Assembly (NCBI GenBank): GCA_963837425.1
Contig: CAWINH010000002.1
Location: forward strand, 355,175-419,174
From: an uncultured Chloroflexia bacterium
GTDB taxonomy: Bacteria; Chloroflexota; Limnocylindria; QHBO01
DNA length: 64,000 nucleotides
Direction: 5' to 3'
Below, piece after piece: positions 240 through 16,934 of the stretch. Numbering within the stretch: position 1 is the stretch's first letter; each line of letters starts with the position of its first letter. The notes under the pieces are model-generated. The model worked only from the letters and a program-made list of their open reading frames with translations. It was not told the origin of the DNA and searched no databases. The position numbers and the translations under genes are program-made.

Positions 240-1581
240 ATGAAGCGACTCGTGCTGGCCGCCTGCATCGGCGTCCTCTCGCTCTGGCTTCCGTCCGGGA
301 TCGTGCGGGCCGCCGGGCCGGCAACGCCGCTCGAGCACCTGGTCGTGCTCATGCAGGAGAACCACACGTTCGACAACTATTTCGGCACCTACCCCGGCGC
401 GGATGGGATACCGGCCGGGCGTCTGCATGCCGGTCGATCCGGCGGCCCCTGACGGCGAGTGCATCGCGCCGTTCCATCTCGGCGACCTGAACGTCACTCT
501 CGATGACCCGGACCACTCGAACACGACGAGCGTGCTCCAGTACGACGGGGCAAAGATGGACGGCTTCGTCTACGCCCTCGACCAGAAGAACCAGGACGGG
601 CGCCTGGCGATGATGTACTACGACGGCGGCCAGATGTACCCTACTACTGGAACCTCGCGGACCAGTACGTGCTGTTCGACCGCTGGTTCAGCTCGTTCGC
701 CGGCCCCAGCTTCACGAACCACGTGTACTGGGTGACCGGGTCGCGGACCCGACCCGAATCCCGCCATCCAGAACCTCGACGCCTTTCCCACCATCTTCGA
801 CCGGCTGGAGGCGGCCGGAGTCAGCTGGAAGTTCTACGTCGAGAACTACGAGCCGGGCCACCATCGGCCCCGCTACAGCACCCGGCCGATCGCCGGCCCA
901 GGTCGTCTGGATGCCGTTGCTCAGCTACGACCGTTTCGTCGACGATCCCCAGCTGAACAGCAAGATCGTGGACCTCGAGCAGTACTACACGACCGCCAAG
1001 GGCAGCCTCCCGGCGGTCGCCTACATCGCCCGGCCGGGGCCAGCGAGCATCCGCCGGGAAGCATCCGGTCCGGCCAGCGCCTCGTCCGCCGCTCGTCCAG
1101 GCTGATGCGGATCAGCCCGTGGGACTCCTCGGCGCCTCTGGTCACTACGACGACTGGGGAGGCTGGTACGACCACGTGACGCCCCCGCAGGTCGACGCCT
1201 ACGGGTACGGGTTCCGGGTCCCCGCCTTCCTGGTCGGCCCATACGTCCGGCGTGGGTACATCGACAGCCTCACGCTCGATTACACCTCCGCGCTGAAGTT
1301 CATCGAGGTCAACTGGGGCTCGCGCCGCTCCGGTCGCGAGCCGCAGGGCCGAAGCCTTCCTCGACGCCTTCGACTTCACGAAGCCGCCCCGGACTCCGGT
1401 GATCTTCGGGATGGAGCGGACGACCGTCAGCCTTGGGCAGGGCGCGCACCGAGAGGTGATCTACGTGGCCTATGCGATCGCCGTGCTGCTCGTCATCGGC
1501 GCCATTGCGCTCGCCGCCATGCGCCGTCGCCGGGAGTCCGAGGTCGGATGGGAGGCGTCGCAGCAGGGCCCCGCCCCATGA
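240..1581 (+). pseudogene. Phospholipase C / acid-phosphatase family phosphoesterase (PF04185-like), secreted with C-terminal TM anchor, disrupted by at least 5 frameshifts
   Basis: Consecutive ORF pieces in different frames (240, 403, 669, 911, 1119, 1399) together rebuild a single phosphoesterase. Motifs seen: LVVLMQENHTFDNYFGTYPG, GYGFRVPAFLVGPYVRRGY and the C-terminal AFLDAFDFTKPP followed by a hydrophobic anchor. It ends with an ATGA overlap into the next gene. Confidence 0.6.
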
Positions 1582-3515
1582 GGCGCACGATGCTGGCGCG
1601 CGGCGTCGTGCTCGGTTGCCTGGCGATTGCGCTCTCCGTTGCCCACGCGCGCGGCGCCGGACCGATCCGGACCACGATTGCGATTCGCCCGCCGGCGGCG
1701 GTGGCCCTCGGCGACCATCCGGAGGTGGTCGTCGACGTGCGTGTGACCGGTGGCGGCCCGTTGCGCGGAGCGCCCGTCGAGCTGAGCATCGATGGCGTTC
1801 TGTACCGGCGCCATTCGACCGATGGCTCCGGCGCCCCGCCCTTCACCCTGCCGAACGACCTGGCGGCCGGCGACCATCGGATCAGCGCCTTCTATCCCGG
1901 TCTGTCGACGACCTACCTGGCTACCTCGACGACCGCGACCCTGGTGGTGAATCCGTTCGAGCTGACGATCGAGACCGTCCCGTCGCTGCCCGGCATGCCG
2001 TTCACCCTCGACGGGGAACGCTTCGTGGCGGGCGACGACGGGGTCGCGCGGACGACGGTGAGCGCCGTCGGTGAGCACGTGCTCGTCGCCCTCCCCGAGG
2101 AGTACCAGCCGGGCGCCCTGCGTGCCGAGTTCAGCCGCTGGAGCGCCGGCAACGAGTTCCGGCCCCAGCTGACGATCAGCGTGCCGAACGTCGGCCCGCT
2201 GCAGGCCGGGTTCGACGTCTTCAGGCCCATGTCTCAGAGCTTCATCGACCTGTCGGGAGCTGCGATCGACCCGGGACGCATCACCTCGATCACCCTCCGC
2301 AGCAGCCTCGGCGAGGTGCTGACCTACCCCGACGGGCAGTCGCGCTTCTTCAAGGCCAGCCGCACGGTCCACCGCTCATCGGGGCTCGAGCCCGTCGACG
2401 TGCGGTACAACGTCACCGACGTCGAGGTCGACGGCTCGAACGTCGTGAATGCCGGTCAGCAGCAGCTCTACGTGACGCCCGATGCGGTCTGGCGCATCAC
2501 GCTCCTCCTCTATTCAGCGCGAGTCCAACCCAAGGACGCGTTCTTCGGCTTCACCGCCGGAAGCTCGATCGAGGTGATCTACCCGAGCGGGAAGACGGAG
2601 GTGGTTCCGGCTGGGCCCGATGGCGTGGTGGTGGTCCAGGGCCTGGCTCGAGGCATCTACCGGATGACGGTCGCCGACGCGCCGGGCTGGGCGCCGGCAA
2701 TGCCGGTCGCACTGTCGAGGGATCAGCAGGTCGAGCTGCGGGTCGTGAGCTGGGTCGACATGGCCGCCGCCGCGCTCGTCGGCTTCGTCGTCCTGTTCGG
2801 ACTCCTGATCCGTGGCCGACCGCACCTCATTGGCAGCACGTCGAGGCCTGTCGGCGAGGTCACGGCCGAGCCGGGAATCCCGTGGCCGGCCGGCTCCCCG
2901 CTGGCGCTGGCCCGGGCCGAGATCGAGGTGGCTCCTCCCGAACCCATCGAACCGCAGCTGGCCGAGGCGGAGCCCGTGAGCCTGACGACCGGCCGGATGC
3001 GCCCGCTGCTCGCCAGCCTGCCCGTCGAGTCGACCCTGGAAGGAGCCGCCTCCCGGCGGGTCGGCGTGAGCGAGCGGCGGAGGGGTGAGGATCAGCGCGT
3101 CTTCGGCTCGAGTGCGCTGCTCGCGTCACCGTTGCGCGGGTACGACCTCGGGGCAACCGATCGGGCCACGGCGCCGCGCGCACCGGCCACGCTCCACCGG
3201 CGACTGACATCTGCCCGCAATGGGAGGGTCCTCAAGGTCCTCTCGACGGTGCCGGTGAGGCCGGTGAACGTGGTCGACCCGGCGCTTCGAATACCCACCA
3301 CCAGGGCCGCGATCCGTCACGATCCGGCACCGACCGTGCCGCGGGTCGAATCGGCCCATCCGGCGACCTCCGAGCCAGTCTGCGAGGCGTGCGGATCGCG
3401 CCTGTGGGGCGGGGCGCTGTACTGCGAGGAGTGCGGGCGCCGGGTTCGCGAGCCGCGGCGCGTAAGCATCGGCTCGCCGGCCCGCGAGGCCGGCCCGCGA
3501 GGCTCGCCGGCATGA
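1578..3515 (+). CDS. Membrane protein, paralog 1: signal peptide, Ig-like (Big-type) beta-rich ectodomain, single TM helix, disordered cytoplasmic tail, C-terminal zinc ribbon (CEACGSRLWGGALYCEECG)
   Basis: Intact 645 aa ORF starting at the ATG at 1578. The N-terminus (MRRTMLARGVVLGCLAIALSVAHA) is hydrophobic. The ectodomain has a repeated pattern V.V.V.GGGPL.G.PVELS.DG typical of bacterial Ig-like folds. A TM helix (MAAAALVGFVVLFGLLIRGRPHL) precedes a C-terminal CxxC-(11)-CxxC. It is about 70-75% identical to the next gene across the ectodomain and TM region. Confidence 0.6.
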   Translation: MRRTMLARGVVLGCLAIALSVAHARGAGPIRTTIAIRPPAAVALGDHPEVVVDVRVTGGGPLRGAPVELSIDGVLYRRHSTDGSGAPPFTLPNDLAAGDHRISAFYPGLSTTYLATSTTATLVVNPFELTIETVPSLPGMPFTLDGERFVAGDDGVARTTVSAVGEHVLVALPEEYQPGALRAEFSRWSAGNEFRPQLTISVPNVGPLQAGFDVFRPMSQSFIDLSGAAIDPGRITSITLRSSLGEVLTYPDGQSRFFKASRTVHRSSGLEPVDVRYNVTDVEVDGSNVVNAGQQQLYVTPDAVWRITLLLYSARVQPKDAFFGFTAGSSIEVIYPSGKTEVVPAGPDGVVVVQGLARGIYRMTVADAPGWAPAMPVALSRDQQVELRVVSWVDMAAAALVGFVVLFGLLIRGRPHLIGSTSRPVGEVTAEPGIPWPAGSPLALARAEIEVAPPEPIEPQLAEAEPVSLTTGRMRPLLASLPVESTLEGAASRRVGVSERRRGEDQRVFGSSALLASPLRGYDLGATDRATAPRAPATLHRRLTSARNGRVLKVLSTVPVRPVNVVDPALRIPTTRAAIRHDPAPTVPRVESAHPATSEPVCEACGSRLWGGALYCEECGRRVREPRRVSIGSPAREAGPRGSPA

Positions 3516-6043
3516 GCCGATCGGTCGTCGGATGGGGATTCGGGCTGGCGCTGCTGGTGGCGATCCTCTCGATCGGGCAGGCCCAGGCGGCGGGTCCCCT
3601 GGCCGTGGGGGTCAGCTTCCGGCCGGTCGACCCCGTCGTCATCGGCAACGGCGCGACCGTCGTCGTTGAGCTGCGCGTGGTGGGTGGCGGGCCGCTGTCG
3701 GGGGAGCCGGTGGAGCTCAGCCTCGACGGGACGTACTACCGTCGCTCACGCACCGATGCCTCGGGCGCCGTGGCGTTCCCCCTTCCCAAGGACCTTGTGG
3801 CCGGTACTCACCCGCTGACCGCGGTCTATCCGGGACGTTCGAACACCTACCTGCCCGCGAGCGCGAAAGCGTCGCTCGAGGTTACCCCGTACCAGCTCCA
3901 GGTCCAGACCGTGCCGTCGCTTCCCGGGATGGGGTTCACCCTGGATGGGACCCGCTTCGTGGCGGGTGCCGATGGGTACGCTCGCATCCCGGTGTCGACC
4001 CCCGGCGATCATGTGCTCATCGCGCTCGACACGGAGTATGCGGCCGCCGGCACCACGGCGCAGTTCTCGCGGTGGACAGTCAACAACGAATACAGCCGCC
4101 AGGTGACGGTGAGCGTCCCGAAGGTCGGCCCGGTGCAGGCCGGATTCGACGTCTCCCGACCGGCCAGCCAGGTGTTCGTGGATCCGAGCGGGGGGCTCGT
4201 CAAAGCCGATCGCATCACGTCGTTCACCCTGCGGAGCAGCCTTGGGCAGGTGCTGACCTATCCCGACGGCCGGGAACGCGTCTACAAGGCCAGCCGCGTC
4301 GTGCGCCGCTCATCGGGCCTCGAATCGGTTGACGTCCGCTACAACGTCACCGATGTCGAGGTCGACGGTTCGAACGTTGTGAACGCCGGCCAGCAGCACT
4401 TCTACACCGCCCCCGACGCGGTCTGGCGGATCTCCCTGCTTCTCTACTCCGCGCGCATCCAGGCCAAGGATGCCCTGTTCGGTTTCACCGCCGGCAAGGC
4501 GGTGGAGATGATCTACCCGAGCGGGAAGTCGCAGATCGTCGACGTCGGGTCCAACGGCGAGGTCTACATTCCCTGGCTCGCGCGCGGGATCTACCGCGTG
4601 GCCGTGGCGGATGCCCCCGGCTGGGCCCCGTCCATGCCGGTCGCCCTCTCCCGCGACCAGGAGGTGGAACTTCGTGTCATCAGCTACCTCGACATGGGCG
4701 TCGCGGGGGCCGTGGCCCTGATCGTCATCTTCGGGCTCCTGCATCGCGGACGGCCGCACCTCATCCGCGACGCGGCGCGGGCGGTAGGTGCGGGTGTGTC
4801 CGGGCTGCGGCTGCCGCTCCCGGGAGCGGCTCACGCGCCCGCAGCCATGCGGCGGCCCGCGGAAGGGGAGCCGACGGCGAATGCCAGCCCACCACCCGTC
4901 GTCGCCAGCCCCCCACCCGTCTTGGCCAGCGCACCGAGCACTGCCACCCAGCAGCCGCAGCTCGCCCAGCAGGCAACCGAGGGCAGCGCGAAGGTCGCGC
5001 CGATCCTGGCAACGATTGCCAGGCGGTCGGACATCGACGCACTCGACCGCGTGGCTCTCGCCCACCATCGGACGATGGGCGTCAACGTTCCGGTGAGCCC
5101 CGACCTGATCGAGCTGGCGCCCTCGCTCTTCGGTCCGCAGGTCGACGAGCCCCCGCCCCCGACGAAGCCGAGGCCGACACCTCTTCCTCCGTTGCGGGCA
5201 CCCGAGAGCGCGGTCGGGGACGCAGCGCCGGCTCCGACCCCCGCAGCGCCGGCTCCGACCCCCGCAACGCCGGCTCCGGCCGAGCTCGCCGCGGAAGCGG
5301 CACCAGGCGTTGCCGATGAGTCGCTGCCATCGAAGCCCGCCCGGACCAGGCGGGCTGCAAAGCGTCCCACCACGAAGAAGGTGACGGAACCGTCGAAGGC
5401 CGTCAGGGCGAAGCGATCAACGGCCAACGCGGCACCCGCGGACGCCACGAGCGCCCCGAAGCGCGCGGCTGCGCCGAAGGCTGCCAAGACGAAGGTTCCC
5501 CGAAAGAAGGCAACCGCCACGACACCGGCGCGACGAGCGCCGGCGAAGGCCGCGAGTCGGCAGACGTCCGCATCGGCGAAGCGGACGGTCCGGAAGAAGG
5601 CGGCTCCAAGCGCTCCGCGCCGCGATTCGAGCCGGACGGTATCGGCGACTCGTGCGAGCTCGACCACGCCGGCATCCGGCACCCGGGAGACTGGCGGGAC
5701 CCGGCCGTCACGCACCCCCCGCAAGCCAGCGGCGGGGCGCTCGAGCCAGGCGGCGGTGTCGGGGGCCGCCGGGCAGCCGGTGGATGAACCGACCGAGACC
5801 CCGCCCAAGGGCGCGGAGATGCAGGCATGCCGCAACTGCGGGCTCGAGCTGTGGGCGGGCGCATCGTATTGCCGCCGCTGCGGCGAGCCGACGATTGGCG
5901 CCGGCGCCACGGACGATGCGCCGAGCGCTGGCCCACGCAGTCCGAAGCGGACGGCGACGCCTCGCGGTCGCAGTCGCCGCCGGCCGGCCACCCCCTCGGC
6001 GGGTTCCACTCGGGCCCGCGGCTCACGGCGAGGCAAGGGATGA
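3512..6043 (+). CDS. Membrane protein, paralog 2: same architecture as 1578-3515 but with a ~360 aa Lys/Ala/Pro-rich histone-H1/HU-tail-like cytoplasmic region before the C-terminal zinc ribbon (CRNCGLELWAGASYCRRCG)
   Basis: Intact 843 aa ORF whose ATG at 3512 overlaps the upstream stop (ATGA). It shows high identity to paralog 1, for example ITSFTLRSSLGQVLTYPDG and VDVRYNVTDVEVDGSNVVNAGQQ. The tail contains KRAAAPKAAKTKVPRKKATATTPARRAPAKAA-type repeats and an APAPTP tandem repeat at the DNA level (5215-5285). Confidence 0.6.
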   Translation: MSRSVVGWGFGLALLVAILSIGQAQAAGPLAVGVSFRPVDPVVIGNGATVVVELRVVGGGPLSGEPVELSLDGTYYRRSRTDASGAVAFPLPKDLVAGTHPLTAVYPGRSNTYLPASAKASLEVTPYQLQVQTVPSLPGMGFTLDGTRFVAGADGYARIPVSTPGDHVLIALDTEYAAAGTTAQFSRWTVNNEYSRQVTVSVPKVGPVQAGFDVSRPASQVFVDPSGGLVKADRITSFTLRSSLGQVLTYPDGRERVYKASRVVRRSSGLESVDVRYNVTDVEVDGSNVVNAGQQHFYTAPDAVWRISLLLYSARIQAKDALFGFTAGKAVEMIYPSGKSQIVDVGSNGEVYIPWLARGIYRVAVADAPGWAPSMPVALSRDQEVELRVISYLDMGVAGAVALIVIFGLLHRGRPHLIRDAARAVGAGVSGLRLPLPGAAHAPAAMRRPAEGEPTANASPPPVVASPPPVLASAPSTATQQPQLAQQATEGSAKVAPILATIARRSDIDALDRVALAHHRTMGVNVPVSPDLIELAPSLFGPQVDEPPPPTKPRPTPLPPLRAPESAVGDAAPAPTPAAPAPTPATPAPAELAAEAAPGVADESLPSKPARTRRAAKRPTTKKVTEPSKAVRAKRSTANAAPADATSAPKRAAAPKAAKTKVPRKKATATTPARRAPAKAASRQTSASAKRTVRKKAAPSAPRRDSSRTVSATRASSTTPASGTRETGGTRPSRTPRKPAAGRSSQAAVSGAAGQPVDEPTETPPKGAEMQACRNCGLELWAGASYCRRCGEPTIGAGATDDAPSAGPRSPKRTATPRGRSRRRPATPSAGSTRARGSRRGKG

Positions 6044-6387
6044 GGGCCGTGAAGCGTCTGACGCTGATCTGGTGCGCGGCCATTCTTGTGACGGCCGGCC
6101 TGGCGGGACCACCCCCGGCGGCTGCGGCAAGCCCCGGAGCCTCGCCGATCCCGGTCCTCGCCTATTACTACATCTGGTATGACCCATCGTCGTGGGATCG
6201 GGCCAAGTCCGACTATCCGATGCTCGGCCGCTACTCGAGCGACGATATCGAGGTCATGCGCCAGCACATTCGCTGGGCCAAGGATGCGGGGATCTCCGGA
6301 TTCATCGTCAGCTGGAAGAGCACCACGACCCTGAACCGCCGCTTGGAACAGCTGATCCAGGTCGCGGATCCGAATCGTTCGAGCTAG
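6040..6387 (+). pseudogene. Truncated secreted glycoside-hydrolase-like protein: signal peptide plus the first ~90 aa of a TIM-barrel-type domain
   Basis: ATGA overlap with the upstream gene. The sequence MRAVKRLTLIWCAAILVTAGLAG looks like a signal peptide. It is followed by YYYIWYDPSSWDRAKSDYPMLGRYSSDDIEVMRQHIRWAKDAGISGFIVSW, which resembles the N-terminus of GH99-like / GHL-type hydrolases; the family assignment is uncertain. The ORF stops after 115 aa exactly where the GC content drops. Confidence 0.35.
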
Positions 6388-8989
6388 CAATCAGTTATCC
6401 AGGGGCTGCAAAACCAACAACGGCTCCGCTCGACGCGACGCACATCGCCACAACCTCGACCAGTTCATCGGGGATTACGCCACCGATGCAGCATTCAACA
6501 TATCAGCAGGCCACTCGTCCTCTCATCAAGGACCTCGGGAGTACAGCGTCGCCGAACATGAGGAGCATCATCAATTCGACGAAGCACGACGCCTGCGGCT
6601 CCGAGCAGCGAATTCGCCCCGGCATCGTGACACTGCTTTGCAGCGACTGAAGTAACGAAGGATCACCGTTTGGCGGGCATCGTCGACGGCGATGCGTACT
6701 ACGTATTCGGTGGAACCCGACCGCGTAGCCCGAATACCCCGCCCAAGCTCGCCCGGAGTGCGAGATACAATGAAGGAACCAGCGGATCTCGATCGCCCCG
6801 GCGGGGCCGGGCTTCGATGCCGTCTGATCGGGGCACAACGGTCGTTGAATCGGAAGGACAGCGACACCCTGCGACGGGAGCTCGATGCGGCCTACGGTTC
6901 CTGGCCGGACACGGTGGGGGTCATCGAGCTCAACGGGTTCAGAAGGAACGGCGAGGTCGAGCCGAGCCTGAACTACAGCAACAACTAGCTCTGGGTCCCT
7001 CGCTGACATGATGGACAACGGGCACCAGAGGATACCCGATCTCGACTCGCCGCAGCCGACCTGGGTACCGTCTCGACGCCCGGGAACGACATGGTCGAGC
7101 CGGATCCTCACGCTCTGCCTCATCGTCGGGCTCCCCTCATCAGGAAGTAAGCATTCATCATTCACAGCAGACAAAGTAAGGCCGATTTCGGCTCGGCGTA
7201 CAGCGGCTGATCCCCGCCGAACGCGAGACAGACCGTCAAGAACAAGATAAAGAGGTGAAGGATGACGACCGCGCTGGAGGAGTCGGACTCATCCAGATTT
7301 CTTCACTAGGCGGCGGCTCCGCGCCTGCCGCTCTGCGTGAAGACGAAGCCGCGTGTTCGGCTTCACTCGCCCTCGACAGATCAGCGATAGTATCCCGACG
7401 TCGCGCTCGAGAAGATCAGCTCCTCGGCCGATGGAACAAGCTGAAACCAACCGCCCCAACGGCATCGACGATGGGGACTCAAGGTCCTGATGCACGTCGC
7501 ACATCGAACACACGAACCGCCGGATCGGGTCAAGAAGCTCGGGGGGAGTTCCGCTGGACGGATCAGGAACCAGCATCGCGCGCCGTCCAGCGCGAGCTGG
7601 CGACGACCCGACCCAGCACCCAGGCGGTGGTGATGGCGATTCGGAATGCGCACGAATACCGATCCAGATCGTGCTGCCCGGTGGCGAGGATGCGCCTCGG
7701 TGCCGCTGACCGTCGAGAGCGGGGCCGAGGCACGATGAGGGACCGTCGCGTGGCCGGGGGGTCCGGCCGGCCGGCCGTGCCGTGATCGAACAGTCGTTGC
7801 TGACCGGGGGCCTGGTCGCCGCCGGCCCCTTGCCGTCGCATTGCTCCTCGCCACCCTGCATGCCGATGACCCGGCGGACGGGCGTCGAGACCCGGGCTCC
7901 GGAGCCGGGGGAGCGGCATCATCTCGGGCCCCGCGTCGCCGAGCGCATCGCCGGTAGACCGCCGCCCGCCTCAGCGAGCCCAACCGCCTCGAGCACCGTC
8001 TCGGCTCTGCCCTCCCCACGGCACGACGCCTCCCGCCCGCCCGTCCCCAGTTAGGCACGCCCACCCGGCACAGCCCAGCCCGCCGGCCGAAGCCACAGGC
8101 CGACCACAGGCCGACGGCCGCGCTGCCGAGGCCGATCACAGCGACGTCCCGGCGCATTTTGCAATTCCGCGCCGCGTTTCTACTAGCATGGTTTCCCGAG
8201 GCATGGAAGCAGCAGGAAATGATTCCTTCCGCTCACTATCGACCATCGATCAGTTTCTGCGATCGAGAATCGAGCCGCGTGGTGAGAGAAACCCAGAGTC
8301 GCCGCGATCCGGTACCGGAAGGATCAGGTCGGATGCTCGCGTCGTCGTAGGAACACGGCAACCAGTTCAACGACGGGATGACCGAGCTCCTCAGCGCCAC
8401 GGCGCCGGACGACGTTCCGGTGGACGGTCTGCTGCGGGGGCAAGAGCCCGGGCGACCATCGGCCTCCCGGTCCACGAGCGAAGCCTGCGCGTACCTGCGC
8501 CCGATACAGCTGCGGATCAGCGCCGGGCTTCTTCCGAGTCGACGTCGGGTGGTGGACTTCATCTACGCCGACGGCGCGGACCGCTGCGGCATCCATGGAG
8601 AATCGCTCGTCAGCGGCCGACGTTGGCATCGGGGCCTACATCGTCCTCAGGTCTTTAGCGGCTTTCGCTCCTGCGGCAACCGAGCCCGCTGGCTCGCACC
8701 AGTGCAGCCCCTGCGGTCTAAATCGTTGAGCGCAGGCCAGCTCAGCTACGTCATGGCTTCCCAGGCTTTCTGGAAGGCGGACAGAGGCCACCGCGCGGCT
8801 CCCGGCGCGACGTCGCGCGATCGTCGCCGGAGCGGGCGTCGGCATGGTCGGCAGCGGACCCCGTTCCAGCTCGTCACGACGTTCAACGATGGGCGAAGGG
8901 ACGGGCGTCGAGAGCGCGACCGACTCGGCGTCGTCGTCGGGATTTCCGACAGTACCTCGACATCCTCCACCGACGCGAGTGCAGATACG

Positions 8990-10405
8990 TAGGCCGCGTC
9001 CCGGCTCAGCCTGGAGCGGGACCGTGCTGACCTGGCCGTCGGGCGTGTCACGCACCTCGATGCCCATGGCCGCCAGCTCGCCGCGGAGCGCATCCGAGGT
9101 GGCGTAGTCGCGGGCCTCCCGGGCGGCTGCGCGGCGTTCGAGGAGCTCCGCGGCGCCCCGGGCAGCTCGGTCGGCGCCGCCTCGGCCGGGGTCGAGCCCA
9201 GGCCCAGCACGCGGTCGAAGTCCAGCAGCAGCGCGCGGCGCTGGGCCGGCCGAGGTCGTCGGCGCCCGCCACGGCGTGCGCGACCGCCAGGGCGGCCGGC
9301 AGGCCCAGGTCGTCGCTGACCGCGTCGACGAAGCGGGCGCGGTAGGAGGCCAACGGCTCGGCGGCGAGGTCAACACGGCTGGCCGATCCGGCCTCGGCGG
9401 CCGCCCGACGCAGGCGCCGCAGGCCGGCGCTGGCGGCCTGCATGGCGTGTTCGGTGAAGTCGAGCTTGGACCGATAGTGGGCAGTGAGCGCCAGGTAGCG
9501 GAAGGCGAGCGGCTCGAAGCCCTTGGCGGGCAGGTCGGTGACGCGGATGATGTTCCCCGCCGACTTGGCCATCTTGGCCTCCGCCATGGTCAGGAACTCG
9601 CCGTGCATCCAGATGCTGACCACCGGATGACCCAGCACGCCCTCGCTCTGGGCGATCTCGTCCTCGTGATGGGGGAACTTGAGGTCGATCCCGCCGGTGT
9701 GGATATCGAACTGCTCGCCGAGGTACTTGACGCTCATGGCGGAGCACTCGATGTGCCAGCCCGGGAAGCCCTCGCCCCACGGCGACGCCCACTTCATGAC
9801 GCGACCCGGCTCGGCGGCCTTCCACAGCGCGAAGTCCTCCGGGTCGCGCTTGTCGGTCTCGACCTCGACGCGATGGCCGGCCCTCATCTGCTCCAGGCGC
9901 TGCCCGGACAGCTTCCCGTAGCCGGTGGGAAGGCGCTGACGTCGTAGTAGACGTTGCCCGCCACCTCGTAGGCCAGCCCGTTCTCCAGCAGGGCTGCCGT
10001 CATCTCGATCATCTCCCCGATGTGCTCGGTCGCGCGCGGCATGACGTCGGCGGGCGCCATGTTGAGCAGCCGCTCGTCGGTCAGCCAGGCATCGGTGTAG
10101 AACTCGGCGATCTGGGCCGGGGTCTTGCCCTCGACTTCGGCGGCCATCAGGATCGGGTCTTCGCCGGTCTCGCGCATGTGGCCCACGTCGGTGATGTTCT
10201 TCACGTAGCGGACCTCGTAGCCGAGGTACTCGAGACGCGCGCAGCAGGTCCCCGAACAGATAGGTCCGCAGGTTGCCGATGTGCGCGTAGCGGTAGACGG
10301 TGCTGCCGCAGGTATAGATCCCGACGCGTCCGGCGAGACGGGGACCAGCGGCTCGACCCGGCGCGTGAGCGAGTTGTAGAGGCGAATGGGAGGCAGGGGC
10401 GCCAT
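8990..10405 (-). pseudogene. cysS: Cysteine--tRNA ligase (CysRS) disrupted by at least 3 frameshifts (pseudogene of a paralog, or assembly indels)
   Basis: The N-terminus MAPLPPIRLYNSLTRRVEPL and the segment LEYLGYEVRYVKNITDVGHMRE sit in one frame. YTCGSTVYRYAHIGNLRTYLFGDLL, HIECS and the KMAKSAGN (KMSKS-like) motif sit in another frame. The C-terminus, ending ...LRGELAAMGIEVRDTPDGQVSTV, is in a third frame. The 3' end coordinate is approximate. Confidence 0.6.
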
Positions 10406-10459
10406 GGCCCGCGCATTGTACCGATGCGGCGGCGGAGCCCCCGCGAGACGGGCCGGCGC

Positions 10460-12285
10460 TCAGCTCGACTCGGCCTCGAACGTCGTCTCGCCGGCGGCCG
10501 CCTCCTCGCGCAGCTGCCGCAGCGCGCCCTGGTCGATGCCGCCGAATCGCGGCAGGTCGCGGATGCTGGCGCTGCGCGCCAGGCGCTCCTGCATCTTGCC
10601 CAGCACCAATGCCGAGAAGTCGGGCGCGGCCATCAGGTGGCGCAGGGTGTCCGCGGGGACCTCGAGCAGGATGGTCGGCTCCTGGGCCACGACATCGGCC
10701 GTCCGCGGGCTGCCGGTGAGCGCGGCGATCTCGCCGAACACATCTCCGGCCCCCATGCTCGACAGCGACCGGTACTCGCCCGAGGCGCTCGAGCCGGCCA
10801 CCGTCCGCCGAGAGGACGAAGTAGGCCGAGTTGCCGGTGTCGCCGGCGCGGGTGATGACCGTGCCGCTCTCCGCGTCCAGCACGCGGGCGCTGCTCACCA
10901 GGGCGTCGCGGTCACGCTGCGGGAGCCCGGCCAGGGCCGGGATGTAGCGCCCCAGGGCCTGCACGTCGGCCAGCGTGGCCCGGCGCCCGGTACCCACTCG
11001 CGCGGCGGTCGGGGCGGTGCGCAGCAGCTGGATGGTGCGGCGCCACTCGGCGGCCGGCTGGCCGATCCCCGGCAGCAGCGCGCCGGCCAGGGCGGTGACC
11101 ACCAGGGCCAGCGAGCTGATGAGGAACAGGGCCCGAACATCGAAGACGTCGGCGAAGCCGGCCAGGCCCATCCCGACCAGGTAGACCACGTCGCGCACCA
11201 CGTAGTTGGTGCTGAACACGCGGCCGCGCATCTCGCGCGGAGTGTTGCGCTGGGCGATGAGGCGGCCGGCCACGAAGGAGGGCGCGTTGAGGATGCCGGA
11301 GATGCCGATCAGGCTGATGGCCAGCCAGACGCTGGACGAGAGGGCGTAGGCCACGCCGGCCAGGCCCATCCCCAGGAAGCTGAGGACCAGCCAGCTGCCC
11401 TCGCGCAGCCGCTCCGCGTAGCGGGCCATCAGCAGGCTGCCGACCACGAAGCCGACCGAGGTGATGCCCTCCTGCAGGCCGTACTCGAACTCGGTGGCCT
11501 TGAGCACCTCGATGGCGAACGGCAGGAGCAGCACGTTCTGGAGGCCGAAGATGACCATGATCGGCGTGCGCAGGATGTTCATGGACGCGTAGGACCGGCG
11601 TCTTCCAGATGAACCGCGCGCCAACCGCCAGGTTGCGCACGACGTCGCCCACGGTCGTCTGCTCCTCGACCTCGAGCGGCGCAATGGTGACCAGCAGGAT
11701 CATCAGGCCGGAGAAGAGGAACGTGCCGGCATCGATGTAGAAGACGAGATCGGGCGCAATGCCGATGAGCAGGCCCGCGAGCGCGAAGCCGATGGCGGTC
11801 GACCCGAACTGGGCGATGGCCATCAACGAGTTCGCGGCGGCGAGCTCCTCGTCCGAGGCGATCTCGGGCAGCACGCTGTCGTTGGCCGGATCGAAGAACT
11901 GCTGGACCGATGCGGAGAGCAGCACGATCACGTACAGGCTGATGATGCTGTCGGTGGCGTGCAGGCTGATGGGGATGGCCGCCACCAGCCCGGCGCGCAG
12001 GATGGTGCTCACGACCATGATCGTCTTGCGGTTCCAGCGATCCACGAAGACGCCCGCGATGAGGCCGAAGAGGAGCGTGGGGGCGGCCGAGACCATGAGC
12101 ATGATCCCGACGTTGAGGATCGACCCCGTGCGCTGGAAGACGATGATGCCCGCGGCCAGCGAGGTCAGCGCGTCGCCGATGGTGGAGACCAGCTGCCCGG
12201 TCCACAGGTAGACGAAGAAGCGGTTGCGGAAGACCGCGAATGGGCCGACGGGAGCCGGGGGGGCTGATGGGGAAGCGGCAGTCAC
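10460..12285 (-). pseudogene. MFS transporter fused to a C-terminal cyclic-nucleotide-binding (cNMP) domain, carrying at least 2 frameshifts
   Basis: The 12 TM-type MFS sequence is split over two frames (10912-12285 and the 9048-11684 frame). The cNMP domain is in a third frame (10460-10801): GDVFGEIAALTGSPRTADVVAQEPTILLEVPADTL. Confidence 0.55.
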
Positions 12286-12385
12286 CGGGTTCCTCCGTGT
12301 GGTCGGCGGGCGGGCAGCCGGAGTCCGCGTGGGTCGCAGCGCATTCTGACAGCCGCGGTCGCGCGGTGCGGCCTCGCTCTACCAT

Positions 12386-12977
12386 GGGCGTCATGTCGCA
12401 CGCCGCCGAGCAGTACCCGCTGACGCTGGGCGAGGAACCAGCTTCTGCCCGGCCTGTGGCCGCCCGGTCGAGGCGCGCGTCCTGGAGCCGGACCACCGGC
12501 CGCGCCTGGTCTGCCCCGGGTCACGTCACCTGGCGGAACCCGAGGATGGTGGTCGGCACGCTCCCCATTCGTGACGGCCGGGTCTTCCTGGCGCGGCGCG
12601 CCATCGAGCCGCGCAGCGGCCGGTGGACTCACCCCGGCGGCTTCCTGGAGCTCGGCGAGGCGGCGCAGGAGGGCGCCCGTCGCGAGACGGAGGAGGAGAC
12701 GCAGCTCAAGGTCAGCGTCGGGCGCCTGATCGGCGCCTATTCGCGGCCGCGGGCCGGCGTGGTGACCATCGTCTACGAGGCGGACGTGGTGGGCGGGGAG
12801 CCGCTGCCGGGGGCGGAGACGAGCGAGGTGCAGGCTTTCGGCCCCGAGGAGATCCCGTGGGGCGAGCTGGCCTTCACAACCACCGCGTCGGCGCTGCGCG
12901 ATTGGATCGCCTCGCTGCCGGGCCACGGGCCGCGGTTCGAGCCGGAGCTGTACGTCACCGGCGACCCCGCGGACTGA
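12386..12977 (+). pseudogene. NUDIX hydrolase with an N-terminal zinc ribbon, frameshifted twice around the zinc ribbon
   Basis: The Nudix box GGFLELGEAAQEGARRETEEETQL lies in frame 0. The zinc ribbon FCPACGRPVEARVLEPDHRPRLVCPG is readable only in another frame between about 12440 and 12515. Confidence 0.5.
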
Positions 12978-13019
12978 GGCCCTGGCCGGCCTCCCGCCGT
13001 ACTCGGCCCCGTTCCCCGG

Positions 13020-13400
13020 CTCATTAGGCCCGTTGATGCATCCGCGGGGGAAGCCCGGTTCCGGCCGCGTTTCGTCCCCCTCCCCCACCCCGGCCCATAG
13101 GGGGTCCCTCAACCCGGCCCGTTCCCCGCGCTCCCCTCCCGGCCCCATATGCGGGGATCAGGCCTGCGCCAGGGGGGGTCCCGGGGGACCCCCCCCCCGC
13201 CCCCCGGCGGCCCTCCCTCCCCCGCCCCGCCCACCCGGGCCGGGCCCCGCCCCCGCGCACCCCTCCCCCCCCCCCCCGCGGGGCGGGTGGCCGGGGGGCG
13301 GGGAGCCAGCCGGGCCGGACAACGCCCCGGGCCTGGCCCGGGAAGGGGCGGGCCCTGACCAGGGCCCCGGGAGACGAAAGTCGGCGCGCGACGTCAGCCC
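13020..13400. repeat. C-rich/G-rich low-complexity block with homopolymer runs up to 13 nt and degenerate CCGGCCC-N-GGGG units; candidate G-quadruplex/i-motif tract or assembly artefact
   Basis: Direct reading of the sequence shows cccccccccc, ccccccccccccc, gggggggg and repeated ccggccc...gggg units. The block sits in the ~440 bp convergent intergenic space between the NUDIX gene and the fabF paralog. Confidence 0.5.
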
Positions 13401-13419
13401 GGATGACGCGGGTTCGCGC

Positions 13420-14670
13420 TCAGACCGGGCGGCGGAAGACGGCCACCGCGTTCTGGCCGCCGAAGCCGAAGCCGTTGATGATTGCCACCCCCACGTCCGC
13501 TCTGCGCGCCAGGTTGGGGACGTAGTCCAGGTCGCAGGCGGGGTCGGGCGTCTCGTAGTTGATCGTGGGCGGGATCAGTCCGTCGCGGATGGCCAGCACC
13601 GCGGCCAGGGCGGACATCGCGCCGGCCGCGCCCAGGGTGTGCCCGATCATGCTCTTGTTGCTGCTCACCGCCAGCCTGGGCGCGTGGTCGGCGAAGGCCG
13701 CGTGGATGGCCCTGGTCTCGGTGGCGTCATTGAGCGGGGTGCTGGTGCCGTGGGCGACCACGTAGTCCACTTCCTCCGGCTCGACGCCCGCGTCGCGCAG
13801 GGCGCGCTGCATGGCGCGGGCCGCGCCGTCACCCGGAGGGGTCGGGTGCGCTGATGTGGAACGCGTCGCCGGTCAGCGCACCGCCGGCGATCTCGGCGAT
13901 GACGGTGGCGCCGCGCGATGGGCGTGCTCGGCCGACTCGACCACCAGGATGCCGGCCGCCTCGCCGAAGACGAAGCCGTCGCGTCTGGCATCGAACGGCC
14001 GCGAGGCATGCTCCGGCTCGTCGTTGCGCTTGGAGAGGGCGCCCATGTTGGCGAGCGCGGCGAACGCCACCGGCAGGATCGCGCTCTCGGTGCCCCCGGC
14101 AACCACCGCGTCGGCGTCTCCGTGCTCGATCATGCGCTGCGCCTCCACGAACGCCTGCACCCCCGAGGCACAGGCCGCCACGCTGGTGACCACCGGGCCG
14201 CGGAGCCGGTTCTGGATGCTGATCTGGCAGGCGGCCATGGAGGGGGAGAGCATGGGCACCATGAACGGGCTGACCCGCGTCGGTCCCTGCTCGAGATAGA
14301 CGCGCTCCCCGAGGGCCACCTCGCCGATCCCGCCGCCGCCGGTGTTGACGACCACGGCGATGTCATCCCGGTTGGCGTCGCTGATCTCGAGGCCGGAATC
14401 ATCGATCGCCTGGCGGGCGGCGGCCACGGCCAGCTGGCTGAATCGGCTCATGCGGCGCGCGGCCTTGAAGTCCATCCAGTCGCGTGGCTCGAAGCCCTTC
14501 ACCTCCGCCGCGATCTGGACCTCCTCGCCGGAAGGGTCGTAGGCGGTGATGCGGGCCACGCCGCTGACGCCACCGGTCAGGTTGGACCAGTAGCTGGCCA
14601 CGTCATTGCCGATGGGGCTGATGACGCCCATGCCGGTGACGACGGCTCGACGGGCGGGGTCGCGGCTCAT
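13420..14670 (-). pseudogene. fabF: 3-oxoacyl-ACP synthase II paralog (KAS II), interrupted by two closely spaced compensating frameshifts with an internal stop
   Basis: The N-terminal 265 aa (13873-14670) and C-terminal 130 aa (13420-13812) are in the same frame. Between them, about 75 bp (13813-13915) is in the wrong frames; the correct peptide [28 protein letters not shown] is readable in a third frame. Confidence 0.6.
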
Positions 14671-14679
14671 CGGGCTGCC

Positions 14680-15963
14680 CTAGGCCTCGTAGCGGCGCAC
14701 GATGACCGTGCTGTTGTGGCCGCCCAGCCCCATCGAGTTGGAGAGGGCCACCCGCACGTCCGCGGCGCGCGCGGTGTTCGGGACGTAGTCCAGGGTGAGC
14801 TCGGGGTCGGGGTGACGGTAGTTGATGGTGGGCGGGATGCAGCCGGTCTGCACCGCCTTCACGCAGACGTAGCCCTCCAGCGCCCCGGCGGCGCCCATGA
14901 GGTGTCCGGTCATGCTCTTGGTGGAGCTCACCGCCAGCCGCTCGGCGTGCGCACCGAAGACCTCGCGAATCGCGGTCGTCTCGTAGCGGTCGTTCAGCGG
15001 CGTGCTCGTCCCGTGGGCGTTGATGTAGTCGACCGCCTCGGGACCGATGCCGGCCCGCGCCAGCGCCGCTCGCATCGCGCGCTGGTTGCCCTCCCCCCGC
15101 TCGGCCGGGGCGGCCATGTGGAACGCGTCGGCCGACGAGCCGTAGCCGATCACCTCGGCCAGCGGGGTCACGCCGCGGGCCAGGGCGTGTCCCAGCTCCT
15201 CGAGGACCAGCACCGCCGAGCCCTCCGCGATGACGAAGCCGTCGCGGGTGGCGTCGAAGGGCCGGCTGGCCTTGGTCGGATCGTACGCGCCGGTGTCCGG
15301 GTCGACGGGAGAGCCGAGCGCCTTCATCTGCTGGAACCCGGCCAGCGCCAGGGGCACCACCACGGCCTCGGCGCCCGCCCCCAGCATCAGGTCAGCCTGG
15401 CCGCGCACGATGGCCTCCATGGCTTCGCCGATGGCGTGGCCGCCGGTGGCACAGGCGCTGACCACGGCCATGTTGTGCCCGCGCAGCCCGTACTGGATGC
15501 CCACCATTCCTGACGCCGCGTCCGGGATCATGTGCGGCAGCAGGAAGGGCGAGACGCGGCCGGGGCCGCGCTCGAGGAGGGTCTGGATCCCCTCGCTCAT
15601 GATCCCGATCCCGCCGATGCCGGTGCCGAAGACGATGCCGAAGCGGTCGCCATTGGCCTGGGCCGGGTCGAGGCGCCCGTCCGCGGCCAGCAGGCCGGCC
15701 CGGCGCAGCGCCTCGCCCGCGGCGGCCACTGCGAAGTGCGTGTTGCGGTCATGCCGGCGCGCGTCCTTGGCGTCCATGTACTGGGTGGCGTCGAAGCCCT
15801 TGACCTCGCCCGCGACGTGGACCTCGAATGCCGACGTGTCGAAGAGGGTGATGTCTGCGATGCCGGAGCGGCCCGCGGTCAGGGCCTCCCAGGTCGCACC
15901 GTCCCCGATGCCGACCGGCGAGACGACCCCCACGCCGGTGACGACGGCCCGGCGGTCGCTCAC
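14680..15963 (-). CDS. fabF: 3-oxoacyl-[acyl-carrier-protein] synthase II (KAS II), intact
   Basis: KAS II motifs are present: [25 protein letters not shown] and GHLMGAAGALE. A GTG start at 15963 overlaps the fabD stop (GTGA). Confidence 0.8.
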   Translation of the reverse strand: MSDRRAVVTGVGVVSPVGIGDGATWEALTAGRSGIADITLFDTSAFEVHVAGEVKGFDATQYMDAKDARRHDRNTHFAVAAAGEALRRAGLLAADGRLDPAQANGDRFGIVFGTGIGGIGIMSEGIQTLLERGPGRVSPFLLPHMIPDAASGMVGIQYGLRGHNMAVVSACATGGHAIGEAMEAIVRGQADLMLGAGAEAVVVPLALAGFQQMKALGSPVDPDTGAYDPTKASRPFDATRDGFVIAEGSAVLVLEELGHALARGVTPLAEVIGYGSSADAFHMAAPAERGEGNQRAMRAALARAGIGPEAVDYINAHGTSTPLNDRYETTAIREVFGAHAERLAVSSTKSMTGHLMGAAGALEGYVCVKAVQTGCIPPTINYRHPDPELTLDYVPNTARAADVRVALSNSMGLGGHNSTVIVRRYEA

Positions 15964-16934
15964 GATGGGAGCCAGGCGGCGAGACCCCCGGGGGCGTCGG
16001 TGGCGTGGGCGCTGGTGTCGGGCGCGATGCGGCGGATCAGGCCGGTGAGCACCCGGCCGGGCCCCACCTCCACGAAGTCGGTGACCCCGTCGGCGGCCAT
16101 GCGGCGCACGGTGTCGGTCCACTGCACGCCGTGCACCAGGTGCTCGGTCAGCTCCTTGCGCAGCCCGTCGGCCGTCTGGATCATGCTGGCATGCACGTTC
16201 CCGAGCATGGGCACGCGCGGCTCGCGGAACGGGACCTTGGCCAGGATCTGGCCGAACTCGTCGCGAGCGCGTCGCATGAGCGGGGAGTGGCTCGCCACGC
16301 TGACGGTGAGGCGCACCGCCTTGCGGGCGCCAATGGTCTTGCTCATCTCGAGCGCGAAGACGAGGGCAGGGATGACGCCGGAGAGCACGATCTGTCCCGG
16401 CGCGTTGGCATTCGCGACCCCGATCTCGCCGTGCTGCCGCGCGTGCTCGACGACCTCGTCAACCTGTTCGTCGGAGAGGCCGATGACGGCCCCCATGCCG
16501 CCGTCGATGCCGCGCTCCTGCATGATCCGTCCCCGCTCCCGGACCAGGTGCAGCGCCTCCTCGAAGTCGATGGCATCGGCGGCAACCGCAGCGGCGTACT
16601 GGCCTGCCGAGTGGCCGGCCAGGACCCGGGGAGCCAGCTCCAGGCCGGCGGCGGCTGCCTGGGCGCGCAGCGCCTCGAGATAGGCGACGCTGGTGGCCAG
16701 GATGGCGGGCTGGGCGTTGACCGTGAGGTCCAGGTCCTCGGCCGGTCCCTCGAGGATCATCCGGGTCAGCGGAAAGCCCAGCGCCCGATCCGCGCGCTCC
16801 ATCACCGCGGCCGCCTCCGGCGAGTGCTCGAGCAGGGCGGCGCCCATCCCCACGTACTGCGAGCCCTGGCCGGGAAAGACAAAGGCATGCACGCGGGGGG
16901 GTGCGATGGACTGCGGGTCGGGTGGGTTCGTCAT
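15960..16934 (-). CDS. fabD: Malonyl-CoA:ACP transacylase
   Basis: FVFPGQGSQYVGMG and GHSAGQYAA motifs are present. The ATG overlaps the stop of the upstream M20 gene (ATGA). Confidence 0.8.
   Translation of the reverse strand: MTNPPDPQSIAPPRVHAFVFPGQGSQYVGMGAALLEHSPEAAAVMERADRALGFPLTRMILEGPAEDLDLTVNAQPAILATSVAYLEALRAQAAAAGLELAPRVLAGHSAGQYAAAVAADAIDFEEALHLVRERGRIMQERGIDGGMGAVIGLSDEQVDEVVEHARQHGEIGVANANAPGQIVLSGVIPALVFALEMSKTIGARKAVRLTVSVASHSPLMRRARDEFGQILAKVPFREPRVPMLGNVHASMIQTADGLRKELTEHLVHGVQWTDTVRRMAADGVTDFVEVGPGRVLTGLIRRIAPDTSAHATDAPGGLAAWLPS

Follow-up and report, generated by a model that had tools for sequence, protein, structure and literature searches.

Does a lysine-, alanine-, and proline-rich stretch in the tail of a bacterial membrane protein belong with the tails of histone H1 and HU-type proteins, or is it a generic linker? 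The question is raised by 64,000 nt of DNA (in the following "the window", ~70% GC) from an uncultured Chloroflexia bacterium, represented by metagenome assemblies only, with a genomic GC content of 72% (contig CAWINH010000002.1, positions 355,175 to 419,174). Two adjacent paralogous genes in this window encode membrane proteins with a zinc ribbon, and the stretch lies in the product of the second one, here called X (paralog 2, window positions 3512–6043 on the forward strand, as are all features described below). The open reading frame (ORF) and its translation specify a bitopic membrane protein of 843 aa, followed by the stop codon, with a long C-terminal tail. We found that the stretch is a real, fast-evolving, and strongly positive disordered segment, encoded in an envelope-sugar operon of soil Chloroflexota. 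Judging from sequence comparisons, it resembles H1 and HU tails partially and in composition alone, and it does not appear to share descent with them. By analogy, the tail would be a membrane-anchored tether that binds polyanions, i.e. nucleic acid, non-specifically; we assign this reading a probability of about 0.4.

Composition of the polycationic block

The first-pass annotation, made from the sequence, had described about 230 aa of AKP repeats (5100–5800, aa 530–763) between a transmembrane (TM) helix and a zinc ribbon. The placement was right: the segment is located between the TM helix (aa ~390–413) and a CxxC...CxxC zinc ribbon (aa 773–790), and the quoted peptide KRAAAPKAAKTKVPRKKATATTPARRAPAKAASRQTSASAKRTVRKKAAP is found in the translation. 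The extent has to be corrected, because the basic part comprises aa 605–746, whereas aa 530–604 are neutral or acidic, and the basic part itself is devoid of repeats.

This polycationic low-complexity block (5324–5749, 142 aa) contains 17 Lys, 22 Arg, 33 Ala, 20 Thr, 17 Ser, 16 Pro, and 4 acidic residues (Asp plus Glu), resulting in a net charge of +35. Aromatic residues are absent, as are Ile and Met, and Leu occurs once (0 F/W/Y/I/M, 1 L). No other stretch of 60 aa with at least six Lys and a net charge of at least +12 is present in the six frames of the 64-kb window. The Lys fraction is 12%, compared with 1.3% in 15 neighbouring proteins (an enrichment of ~9-fold) and ~1% in the N-terminal 190 aa of this tail. 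This enrichment runs against the mutational bias, Arg being the cheap cation at 72% GC.

The block contains no internal repeat and no periodicity of Lys and Arg (autocorrelation, |z| ≤2.3 at lags 1–12). Tandem Repeats Finder (TRF) reported no array in 5324–5749 except for a weak 9-bp row with a score of 30. Motifs of the PAKKA/AKKA type are absent, KPAA and SPKK likewise, and [ST]PX[KR] occurs twice. For comparison, yardstick tails of the HupB, H1, and AlgP type have Lys fractions of 24–41%, and 2/3 are clearly periodic. Measured against the compositional K/A/P class, the values for Ala (23%), Pro (11%), and Asp plus Glu (3%) and the lack of aromatics fit, while those for Lys (12%), Arg (15%), and Ser plus Thr (26%) deviate. 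By its lack of repeats and periodicity, the block does not qualify as a tandem array of short repeats with periodic Lys spacing (KPAA, PAKKA, and S/TPKK classes).

Homology searches were in line with these results. Scanned against Pfam on its own at E ≤10, the block matched no family, PF00538 included, and no H1 winged-helix or Hc1/Hc2 model matched the whole protein. PF00216 had no match in the window protein or in the orthologs P0002, P0003, P0004, P0009, and P0027. A comparison of the block alone with 5.8 billion proteins gave no match at E ≤1e-3, i.e. the block is undetectable by homology search. With the tail, the sole NCBIfam match was a compositional one to the low-complexity end of a valyl-tRNA synthetase (ValRS) model (E 0.03), and a PDB sequence search retrieved the zinc ribbon and low-complexity noise only. 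Because repeats, periodicity, PAKKA/KPAA/SPKK motifs, sequence homologs, and Pfam matches are all missing, the likeness to H1 and HU appears to be compositional only. The resemblance to H1 and HupB tails that had been proposed thus survives partly, for the composition, and fails for domains and repeat motifs.

One ortholog, P0003 from a JGI metagenome, was automatically named "DNA-binding protein HU-beta", although it has no match to the HU domain. We infer that the name rests on the composition of the tail, and it is probably a compositional false annotation that is able to propagate.

Conservation of the charge layout

A whole-protein search retrieved 146 relatives, among which P0001–P0027 and P0095 constitute the zinc-ribbon subfamily; P0001 (NCBI/ENA) is 100% identical to X. 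The tails cannot be aligned except for a few short motifs. Each of 19 long-tailed orthologs, with overall identities down to ~33%, has a block with a net charge of +22 to +35 per 140 aa and 12–24 Lys. The tails were cut into ten bins from the TM helix to the zinc ribbon, and the mean net charges per residue were +0.17, 0.01, 0.00, +0.09, +0.15, +0.15, +0.18, +0.20, +0.08, and -0.04. Lys accounts on average for a fraction of 0.01 in bins 1–3 and of 0.07–0.12 in bins 4–8. The comparison indicates a conserved layout, i.e. a neutral Pro-rich spacer, a Lys-rich core, a neutral to acidic connector, and the zinc ribbon, whereas the sequence itself is not conserved.

A generic, unconserved linker without basic periodicity had been named as the alternative to a histone-like tail. 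This description is correct for the sequence, which is unconserved and aperiodic, but not for the charge layout and the Lys enrichment, and the conservation of both in 19 orthologs argues that the region is not a generic linker. As Lys is enriched against the GC bias and kept in the orthologs, the charge layout and the Lys enrichment are maintained by selection.

The repeat units of the cores differ from ortholog to ortholog: ATKPR occurs ~10 times in P0009, P0002 has three near-perfect 50-aa units, P0004 contains KSTATKSTA, and P0027 contains three copies of KRSSKKAAAETQPP. These differences indicate independent expansions. In a neighbor-joining tree built from the ectodomains, polycationic tails occur throughout the zinc-ribbon clade apart from a few reductions, i.e. 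paralog 1 (P0007, P0008), P0012/P0014, P0010, and P0011, which is Arg-only.

As a separate observation, most of the clade shares the motif (R)xQLxxLG(L/I)xDPG between the block and the zinc ribbon (columns ~1220–1245 of alignment A1). It is present in P0005, P0006, P0009, P0011, P0013, P0015, P0017–P0021, P0023, and P0095, but neither the window protein nor any of its three closest orthologs has it; it is a possible docking motif. A candidate beta-clamp-binding motif in LAPSLFG was rejected, because it is not conserved in P0005 and P0006.

Tandem repeats and strain comparison

The 21-bp perfect tandem noted in the first-pass annotation exists. TRF reported it at 5221–5278 (2.8 copies, 97% match), with two perfect copies of gcgccggctccgacccccgca at 5225–5266 followed by a partial third. 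It had been placed in the AKP tail, but it encodes AAPAPTP units in the Pro/Ala-rich, neutral to acidic spacer and thus lies outside of the basic block. A second 21-bp tandem (4883–4935, ASPPPVV x2.5) is located in the neutral spacer.

The suggested recent repeat expansion was borne out by a comparison with L039 (JGI 3300081968), a contig that carries both paralogs and encodes a paralog 2 of 856 aa. Its tail has one 21-bp unit fewer (window 5247–5267) and, after window position 5466, an AAPKR-type insertion of 60 bp, which encodes AAPKRSAAPKRAAAPSVTDE. The remainder of the protein is nearly unchanged, with 387 of 388 residues identical in the ectodomain and 97 of 97 in the zinc ribbon and C-terminus. 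The ratio of nonsynonymous to synonymous differences is 15:10 in the tail and 1:4 in the ectodomain; within the block (5324–5749), 10 nonsynonymous differences stand against 5 synonymous ones. This shows that the exact tail sequence is under weak constraint. Sequence and length of the tail turn over fast through replication slippage, with reading frame and charge being kept.

The strain-level evidence consists of this one comparison, since two further scans of JGI metagenome contigs did not add a close variant: an exact-match scan for the repeat flank gave 0 matches, though the pattern is present in L039, and a protein-pattern scan yielded no close strain variant, the best match having 54%.

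Disorder and topology of the tail

AlphaFold2 (AF2) was run on an alignment of 115 sequences. For aa 432–766, it predicted no secondary structure, with a predicted local distance difference test (pLDDT) score of ~33–54, i.e. below ~55, while the zinc ribbon reached ~90 and the C-terminus was low again. About 340 aa between TM helix and zinc ribbon are thus predicted to be disordered. The charge-hydropathy test agreed with AF2, placing the block (mean hydropathy 0.374, net charge 0.246) and the C-terminus on the disordered side of the boundary. According to both predictions, the block belongs to the class of intrinsically disordered polyelectrolyte regions.

X starts with a signal peptide (aa 1–26), followed by an exported ectodomain (aa 27–389, 3590–4678), which is modeled with pLDDT >93 as all-beta tandem Ig-like beta-sandwiches (~360 aa). 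Foldseek matches of the ectodomain in the PDB include a B. anthracis TIE protein, Gram-positive pilins, and adhesin extender domains, and Pfam contributed a weak Big_3_5 match. The fold search returned generic tandem Ig-like matches alone and gave no clue to function. The next segment (4679–4804) comprises the TM helix, the motif GRPHLI, and a short helix (aa 417–431), as derived from hydropathy and the AF2 helices 392–413 and 417–431. The juxtamembrane motif is conserved, with G413/R414/P415/H416 nearly invariant.

The tail then begins with a neutral spacer rich in Pro, Ala, Ser, and Gln (aa 432–544, 4805–5143, net charge 0, pLDDT 33–50), in which two motifs, KVAPILATIARRSDIDALDR (4991–5050) and PDLIELAPSLFG (5099–5134), are kept in the closest orthologs. 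An acidic to neutral spacer rich in Pro and Ala (aa 545–604, 5144–5323; net -5, 19 Pro and 16 Ala per 60 aa) leads to the block, and a short acidic to neutral connector (aa 747–769, 5750–5818, net -3) separates the block from the Cys4 zinc ribbon (aa 770–793, 5819–5890; C773, C776, C787, and C790; consensus CxxCG-x8-A-x-FCRRCG). The Arg-rich disordered C-terminus (aa 794–843, 5891–6040) has a net charge of +11.

The description of the tail as cytoplasmic and strongly basic was upheld by the topology and by the net charge of the block. The signal peptide, the exported all-beta domain, the single TM helix, and the Arg-rich segment behind it together predict a cytoplasmic tail. A Cys4 ribbon suits a reducing compartment, and natural fusions of X with a GH99-like protein (see below) carry a second TM helix directly after a short Arg-rich loop, which fits a cytoplasmic loop; both support this prediction. 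An extracellular tail, an idea derived from a homolog in the Limnocylindria locus L015 that ends in a LysM domain, was rejected for X because of the single TM helix, the positive-inside segment, the Cys4 ribbon, and the second TM helix of the fusions. The homolog itself (L015:8829-9851) has four basic repeats of ~32 aa after the TM helix and then the LysM end (PF01476, 21.6 bits vs a cut-off of 20.9). LysM is peptidoglycan-binding, and its location on the predicted cytoplasmic side presents a topology puzzle.

The four Cys of the zinc ribbon are invariant in 25 sequences. In profile searches, its closest solved relatives were 9SFA, a Bdellovibrio cyclic-nucleotide-binding protein that matched with its C-terminal ribbon (E 5e-5), and archaeal eL40 (E 7e-4); eL40, one of the nearest solved zinc ribbons to that of X, is an rRNA-binding ribosomal protein.

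Paralog 1 and the operon

Paralog 1 (1578–3515, 645 aa) has an ectodomain, a TM helix, and a zinc ribbon like X. As had been stated, it lacks the polycationic stretch; its tail comprises 234 aa with a single Lys. The start codon of X was set at 3512 based on homology and on the ATGA overlap with the stop codon of paralog 1. The extra copy was seen only in the lineage of L001 and L039, while L002–L004 and L040 have a single X gene. A look-up of the paralog-1-type protein P0008 found nothing on record. A 13-bp tandem (GCCGGCCCGCGAG x2.2) at 3471–3511 covers the last codons of paralog 1 directly 5′ of the start of X.

The gene order, read in six contigs (L001–L004, L039, and L040), is beta-helix/CBM96, GT2, GtrA fusion, PMT/GT-C, PF04185 phosphoesterase, X, GH99/GH71-like, GerE, and GH99-like, with 4-bp overlaps at several of the junctions. 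In the core, which consists of GtrA, GT-C, phosphoesterase, X, and GH99-like, X is the fourth gene. Besides L001:3464-15421, a tblastn search detected the core in ~30 further loci (L002–L036) from Chloroflexia, Anaerolineae, Thermomicrobiales, Limnocylindria, Thermoleophilia/Solirubrobacterales, Truepera, and Thermoanaerobaculia, i.e. in four phyla (Chloroflexota, Thermoleophilia, Deinococcota, and Acidobacteriota). The GT2 protein resembles polyprenyl-phosphate sugar synthases (PpgS/AglJ-like matches), and a signal peptide is combined with a C-terminal TM helix in both the phosphoesterase and the GH99-like protein. The "GtrA" protein (L001:3464-5062) is a fusion of a GtrA TM domain (aa 16–133) with a soluble part of ~400 aa, which has a GKT motif and matches HPr-kinase-like P-loop models weakly (TIGR04352, E 2e-7; PF07475, E 1e-3).

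At three loci from Thermoleophilia and other lineages (L028:8556-9926, L057:5021-6535, and L022:8616-9989), X is fused in frame to the GH99/GH71-like protein via the second TM helix. Such fusions represent a Rosetta-stone link between the two proteins. The conserved operon, the fusions, and the fact that the ectodomain matches only generic Ig-like stalks indicate that X is a core component of an extracytoplasmic glycan machine, anchored in the membrane and non-enzymatic. A literature search found no paper describing this operon, which is conserved across phyla, so it may be a more valuable lead than the tail.

Throughout the family, the C-terminus of X is an accretion hot spot, with tail lengths from 10 to ~700 aa. 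The tail types include basic stubs of 10–50 aa and mixed-charge tails with a zinc ribbon. L013 has a second TM helix and an extracellular domain at the C-terminus of X. Polyacidic repeat tails with DDALS, EDALQ, or DAPYA units (~100 Asp plus Glu per ~400 aa) occur in L089:4116-5669, L097:4580-6091, L098, and L102.

Possible functions of the tail

The nucleic acid tether that we favor would be built as follows. From the membrane inward, an Arg-rich stop-transfer segment is followed by a neutral Pro/Ala spacer of 130–190 aa, the polycation, the acidic connector, the ribbon, and the Arg-rich end. The spacer would let the polycation reach away from the membrane, and the polycation would bind polyanions of the cytoplasm without specificity. 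Its ligand would most probably be nucleic acid, either chromosomal DNA or RNA, and possibly polyphosphate (polyP). Zinc ribbon and Arg-rich end could add affinity, and the envelope-glycan machine would thereby be tethered or positioned relative to the nucleoid or to RNA. Nucleic acid is ranked first because of the long spacer, the lack of hydrophobic residues for insertion into the bilayer, and the presence of the zinc ribbon and the Arg-rich end next to the block.

Several observations weigh against this reading. The Lys fraction of the block is well below that of H1 and HupB tails (~30–40% in the yardstick sequences), the Ser/Thr fraction is far higher, and there is no periodic repeat that would match the DNA groove. 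The Pfam matches of the ribbon to DZR_2 (20.7 bits, cut-off 27) and Zn_Ribbon_1 (19.5 bits, cut-off 25) are below the gathering thresholds. Most family members outside the zinc-ribbon clade have tails of 10–100 aa, and the single X protein of a related species (L040) has a tail of 195 aa with one Lys and a net charge of +5. The block is thus dispensable for the operon; the short, non-basic tail of L040 suggests that the polycation is a lineage-specific accessory that is not required for the chemistry of the operon. The polyacidic tails of another clade cannot bind nucleic acid, and since these tails are long as well, the common theme may be a "long charged brush" rather than a "DNA binder". 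Every ligand proposed for the tail is an analogy, and the data would agree about equally well with binding of DNA or the nucleoid, of RNA, of polyP, or of anionic lipid, or with a mere spacer role.

The most serious competitor, though we regard it as somewhat unlikely, is an entropic spacer or polyelectrolyte bristle without a specific ligand, which would hold the zinc ribbon as the functional module at a distance. In a variant, the tail would space membrane complexes sterically and electrostatically, and the charge would just keep the chain expanded and soluble. The lack of sequence conservation, the fast indels and substitutions seen against L039, the range of tail lengths in the family, and the similar length of the polyacidic repeat tails all agree with a spacer. 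The same is true for the related species with the short tail and for paralog 1, which lacks the block in the same genome; Pro/Ala-rich segments are, in addition, classic stiff linkers. A chain without a ligand, however, needs no Lys, whereas Lys is enriched ~9-fold in the central bins of the tail only, and this pattern is kept in the 19 orthologs over deep divergence. On physical grounds, a +35 polycation could not stay unbound amid cytoplasmic RNA, DNA, and polyP.

An electrostatic membrane binder is improbable. The polycation would fold onto the inner leaflet and sequester phosphatidylglycerol (PG), cardiolipin, or polyprenyl-phosphate sugar carriers, with substrate clustering or stabilisation of the complex as a consequence. 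This would suit an operon that is built on a polyprenyl-phosphate-sugar pathway (GT2, GtrA domain, GT-C/PMT) and a highly charged tail that is permanently tethered to the membrane. A lipid binder is expected beside the membrane, but in 19 of 19 orthologs the block starts only after ~190 residues counted from the TM helix, with a neutral to acidic spacer in between, and it offers neither aromatic nor large hydrophobic residues for insertion. The adjacent zinc ribbon and Arg-rich end also seem closer to nucleic acid or protein binders.

We consider it quite improbable that the tail is a regulatory platform for docking or modification, i.e. a substrate of a kinase or acetyltransferase or a carrier of short linear motifs, in which the charge state would switch the interaction of the zinc ribbon with a cytoplasmic partner and relay information across the membrane. 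The block offers many acceptor residues (37 Ser plus Thr and 17 Lys per 142 aa), other parts of the tail contain conserved short motifs (APILATIARRSDLD and DLIELAPSLFGP among close orthologs, LRRSQLAALGLxDPG among those more distant), and the weak HPr-kinase-like domain of the GtrA protein is predicted to be cytoplasmic. Yet the block has only three [ST]P sites and no conserved site, and the HprK-like domain, the matches of which are far below threshold, occurs across the operon family whatever the tail.

If the tail is a nucleic acid tether, it would directly link the envelope-glycan machinery to the nucleoid or to RNA in a poorly studied phylum. An extended version is doubtful, i.e. that the tail represents a new kind of membrane-to-nucleoid/RNA tether, in which an H1-like polycation and a zinc ribbon are hard-wired to a TM protein of filamentous soil Chloroflexia. 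If true, chromosome or transcripts would be physically linked to the extracytoplasmic machine for the envelope glycan, and the tail could determine the site of glycan synthesis along the cell or tie this synthesis to the state of the nucleoid. Lineage-specific charge reversal, as in the polyacidic clade, would then tune attraction to versus exclusion from the nucleoid. Even without binding, the tail is a clean case in which selection preserves composition and charge layout, but not the sequence, in the face of a strong GC bias, and slippage remodels the region between strains.

Reading frame and assembly

A spurious Lys-rich translation of high-GC DNA through a wrong frame, a non-coding stretch, or sequencing errors might be suspected from the flanks of the window, which are rich in one-base indels and frameshifted genes, and from a long antisense ORF (4831–6390) that overlaps the region, but it is practically excluded by two other contigs, by strain indels in multiples of three, by the invariant zinc ribbon 3′ of the block in the same frame, by an architecture common to all orthologs, and by the codon usage (28 AAG vs 2 AAA for Lys). 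Positions 1500–6000 of the window are 100% identical to L001, an independent ENA contig, and ~99% identical to the JGI contig outside of three indel tracts, two of which are in paralog 2. Based on the identity to the ENA contig, the strain indels of 21 and 60 bp, and the ribbon, the reading frame is secure, and the antisense ORF was rejected as the true coding sequence.

The flanks differ. Positions 1–1500 and 6000–16500 of the window deviate by ~13–15% from L001 and L039, including ~170 one-base indels, while these two independent assemblies of the same lineage are ~99% identical to each other. The flanking genes of the operon are present in the window but frameshifted; the frameshifted genes comprise those for the phosphoesterase, the GH99-like protein, and cysS. 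This divergence has the appearance of an assembly problem, either a consensus of uneven quality or a chimera, rather than of biology.

Comparison with known systems

The zinc ribbon of X shares the Cys4 pattern CxxC-x10-CxxC and the signature CG...FC..CG with DZR/Zn_Ribbon_1 (PF12773, PF18912, and PF13240) and eL40; unlike DZR, it is single and not double.

Three membrane-anchored systems resemble X in design. The C-terminal half of E. coli RNase E is a membrane-tethered, disordered, cationic, and nucleic acid-binding region on the inner side of the cytoplasmic membrane. It differs from X in its tether, an amphipathic helix instead of a TM helix, in its short Arg-rich segments, and in its role as degradosome scaffold, and the two are not homologous. 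ZipA and TonB consist of a membrane anchor, a long, extended Pro-rich linker, and a small terminal binding domain, and this architecture of anchor, charged or Pro-rich linker, and small end domain is also that of X. In contrast to X, neither ZipA, with its cytoplasmic FtsZ-binding domain, nor the periplasmic TonB has a polycationic core of +35 or a zinc ribbon.

In its physical character, the tail is closest to mycobacterial HupB's C-terminal domain (CTD), the KPAA domains of Pseudomonas AlgP and PhaF, chlamydial Hc2, and the eukaryotic H1 CTD, all of which are likewise long, disordered, strongly cationic, and rich in Ala, Pro, and Lys. The net charge of the block (+35) is of the same order as those of AlgP (+55) and PhaF (+35) (PMC9239181). 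Repeat slippage between strains is known for algP and Hc2 (PMC9239181, PMC2848022), and the tail of X behaves likewise in the comparison with L039. AlgP, which is associated with polyP granules, binds DNA through its C-terminal domain, and its repeats differ among clones (PMC9239181). The KPAA region of PhaF binds RNA and is also a translational activator, with an exopolysaccharide transcript among those affected (PMC12818456), and the Lys-rich tails of HupB, TopA, and Ku are reported to bind DNA (PMC2932737, PMC5676037, PMC5714199, PMC3553676).

The tail of X is not homologous to HupB, AlgP, PhaF, Hc2, or H1 and lacks an HU or H1 globular domain. Unlike HupB, AlgP, PhaF, and H1, it has no KPAA, PAKKA, or SPKK unit and no charge periodicity, and its Lys fraction is only 12%, next to 15% Arg and 26% Ser plus Thr. 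It also sits on an integral membrane protein of an envelope-glycan operon, whereas HupB, AlgP, PhaF, and Hc2 are soluble nucleoid or granule proteins. By this analogy, the tail of X would act like those of H1, HupB, AlgP, and PhaF in its physics while being unrelated to them by descent. It extends a known class, the H1-like disordered regions of biased, cationic composition, to a new host, namely a TM protein from a glycan operon that is conserved and uncharacterised.

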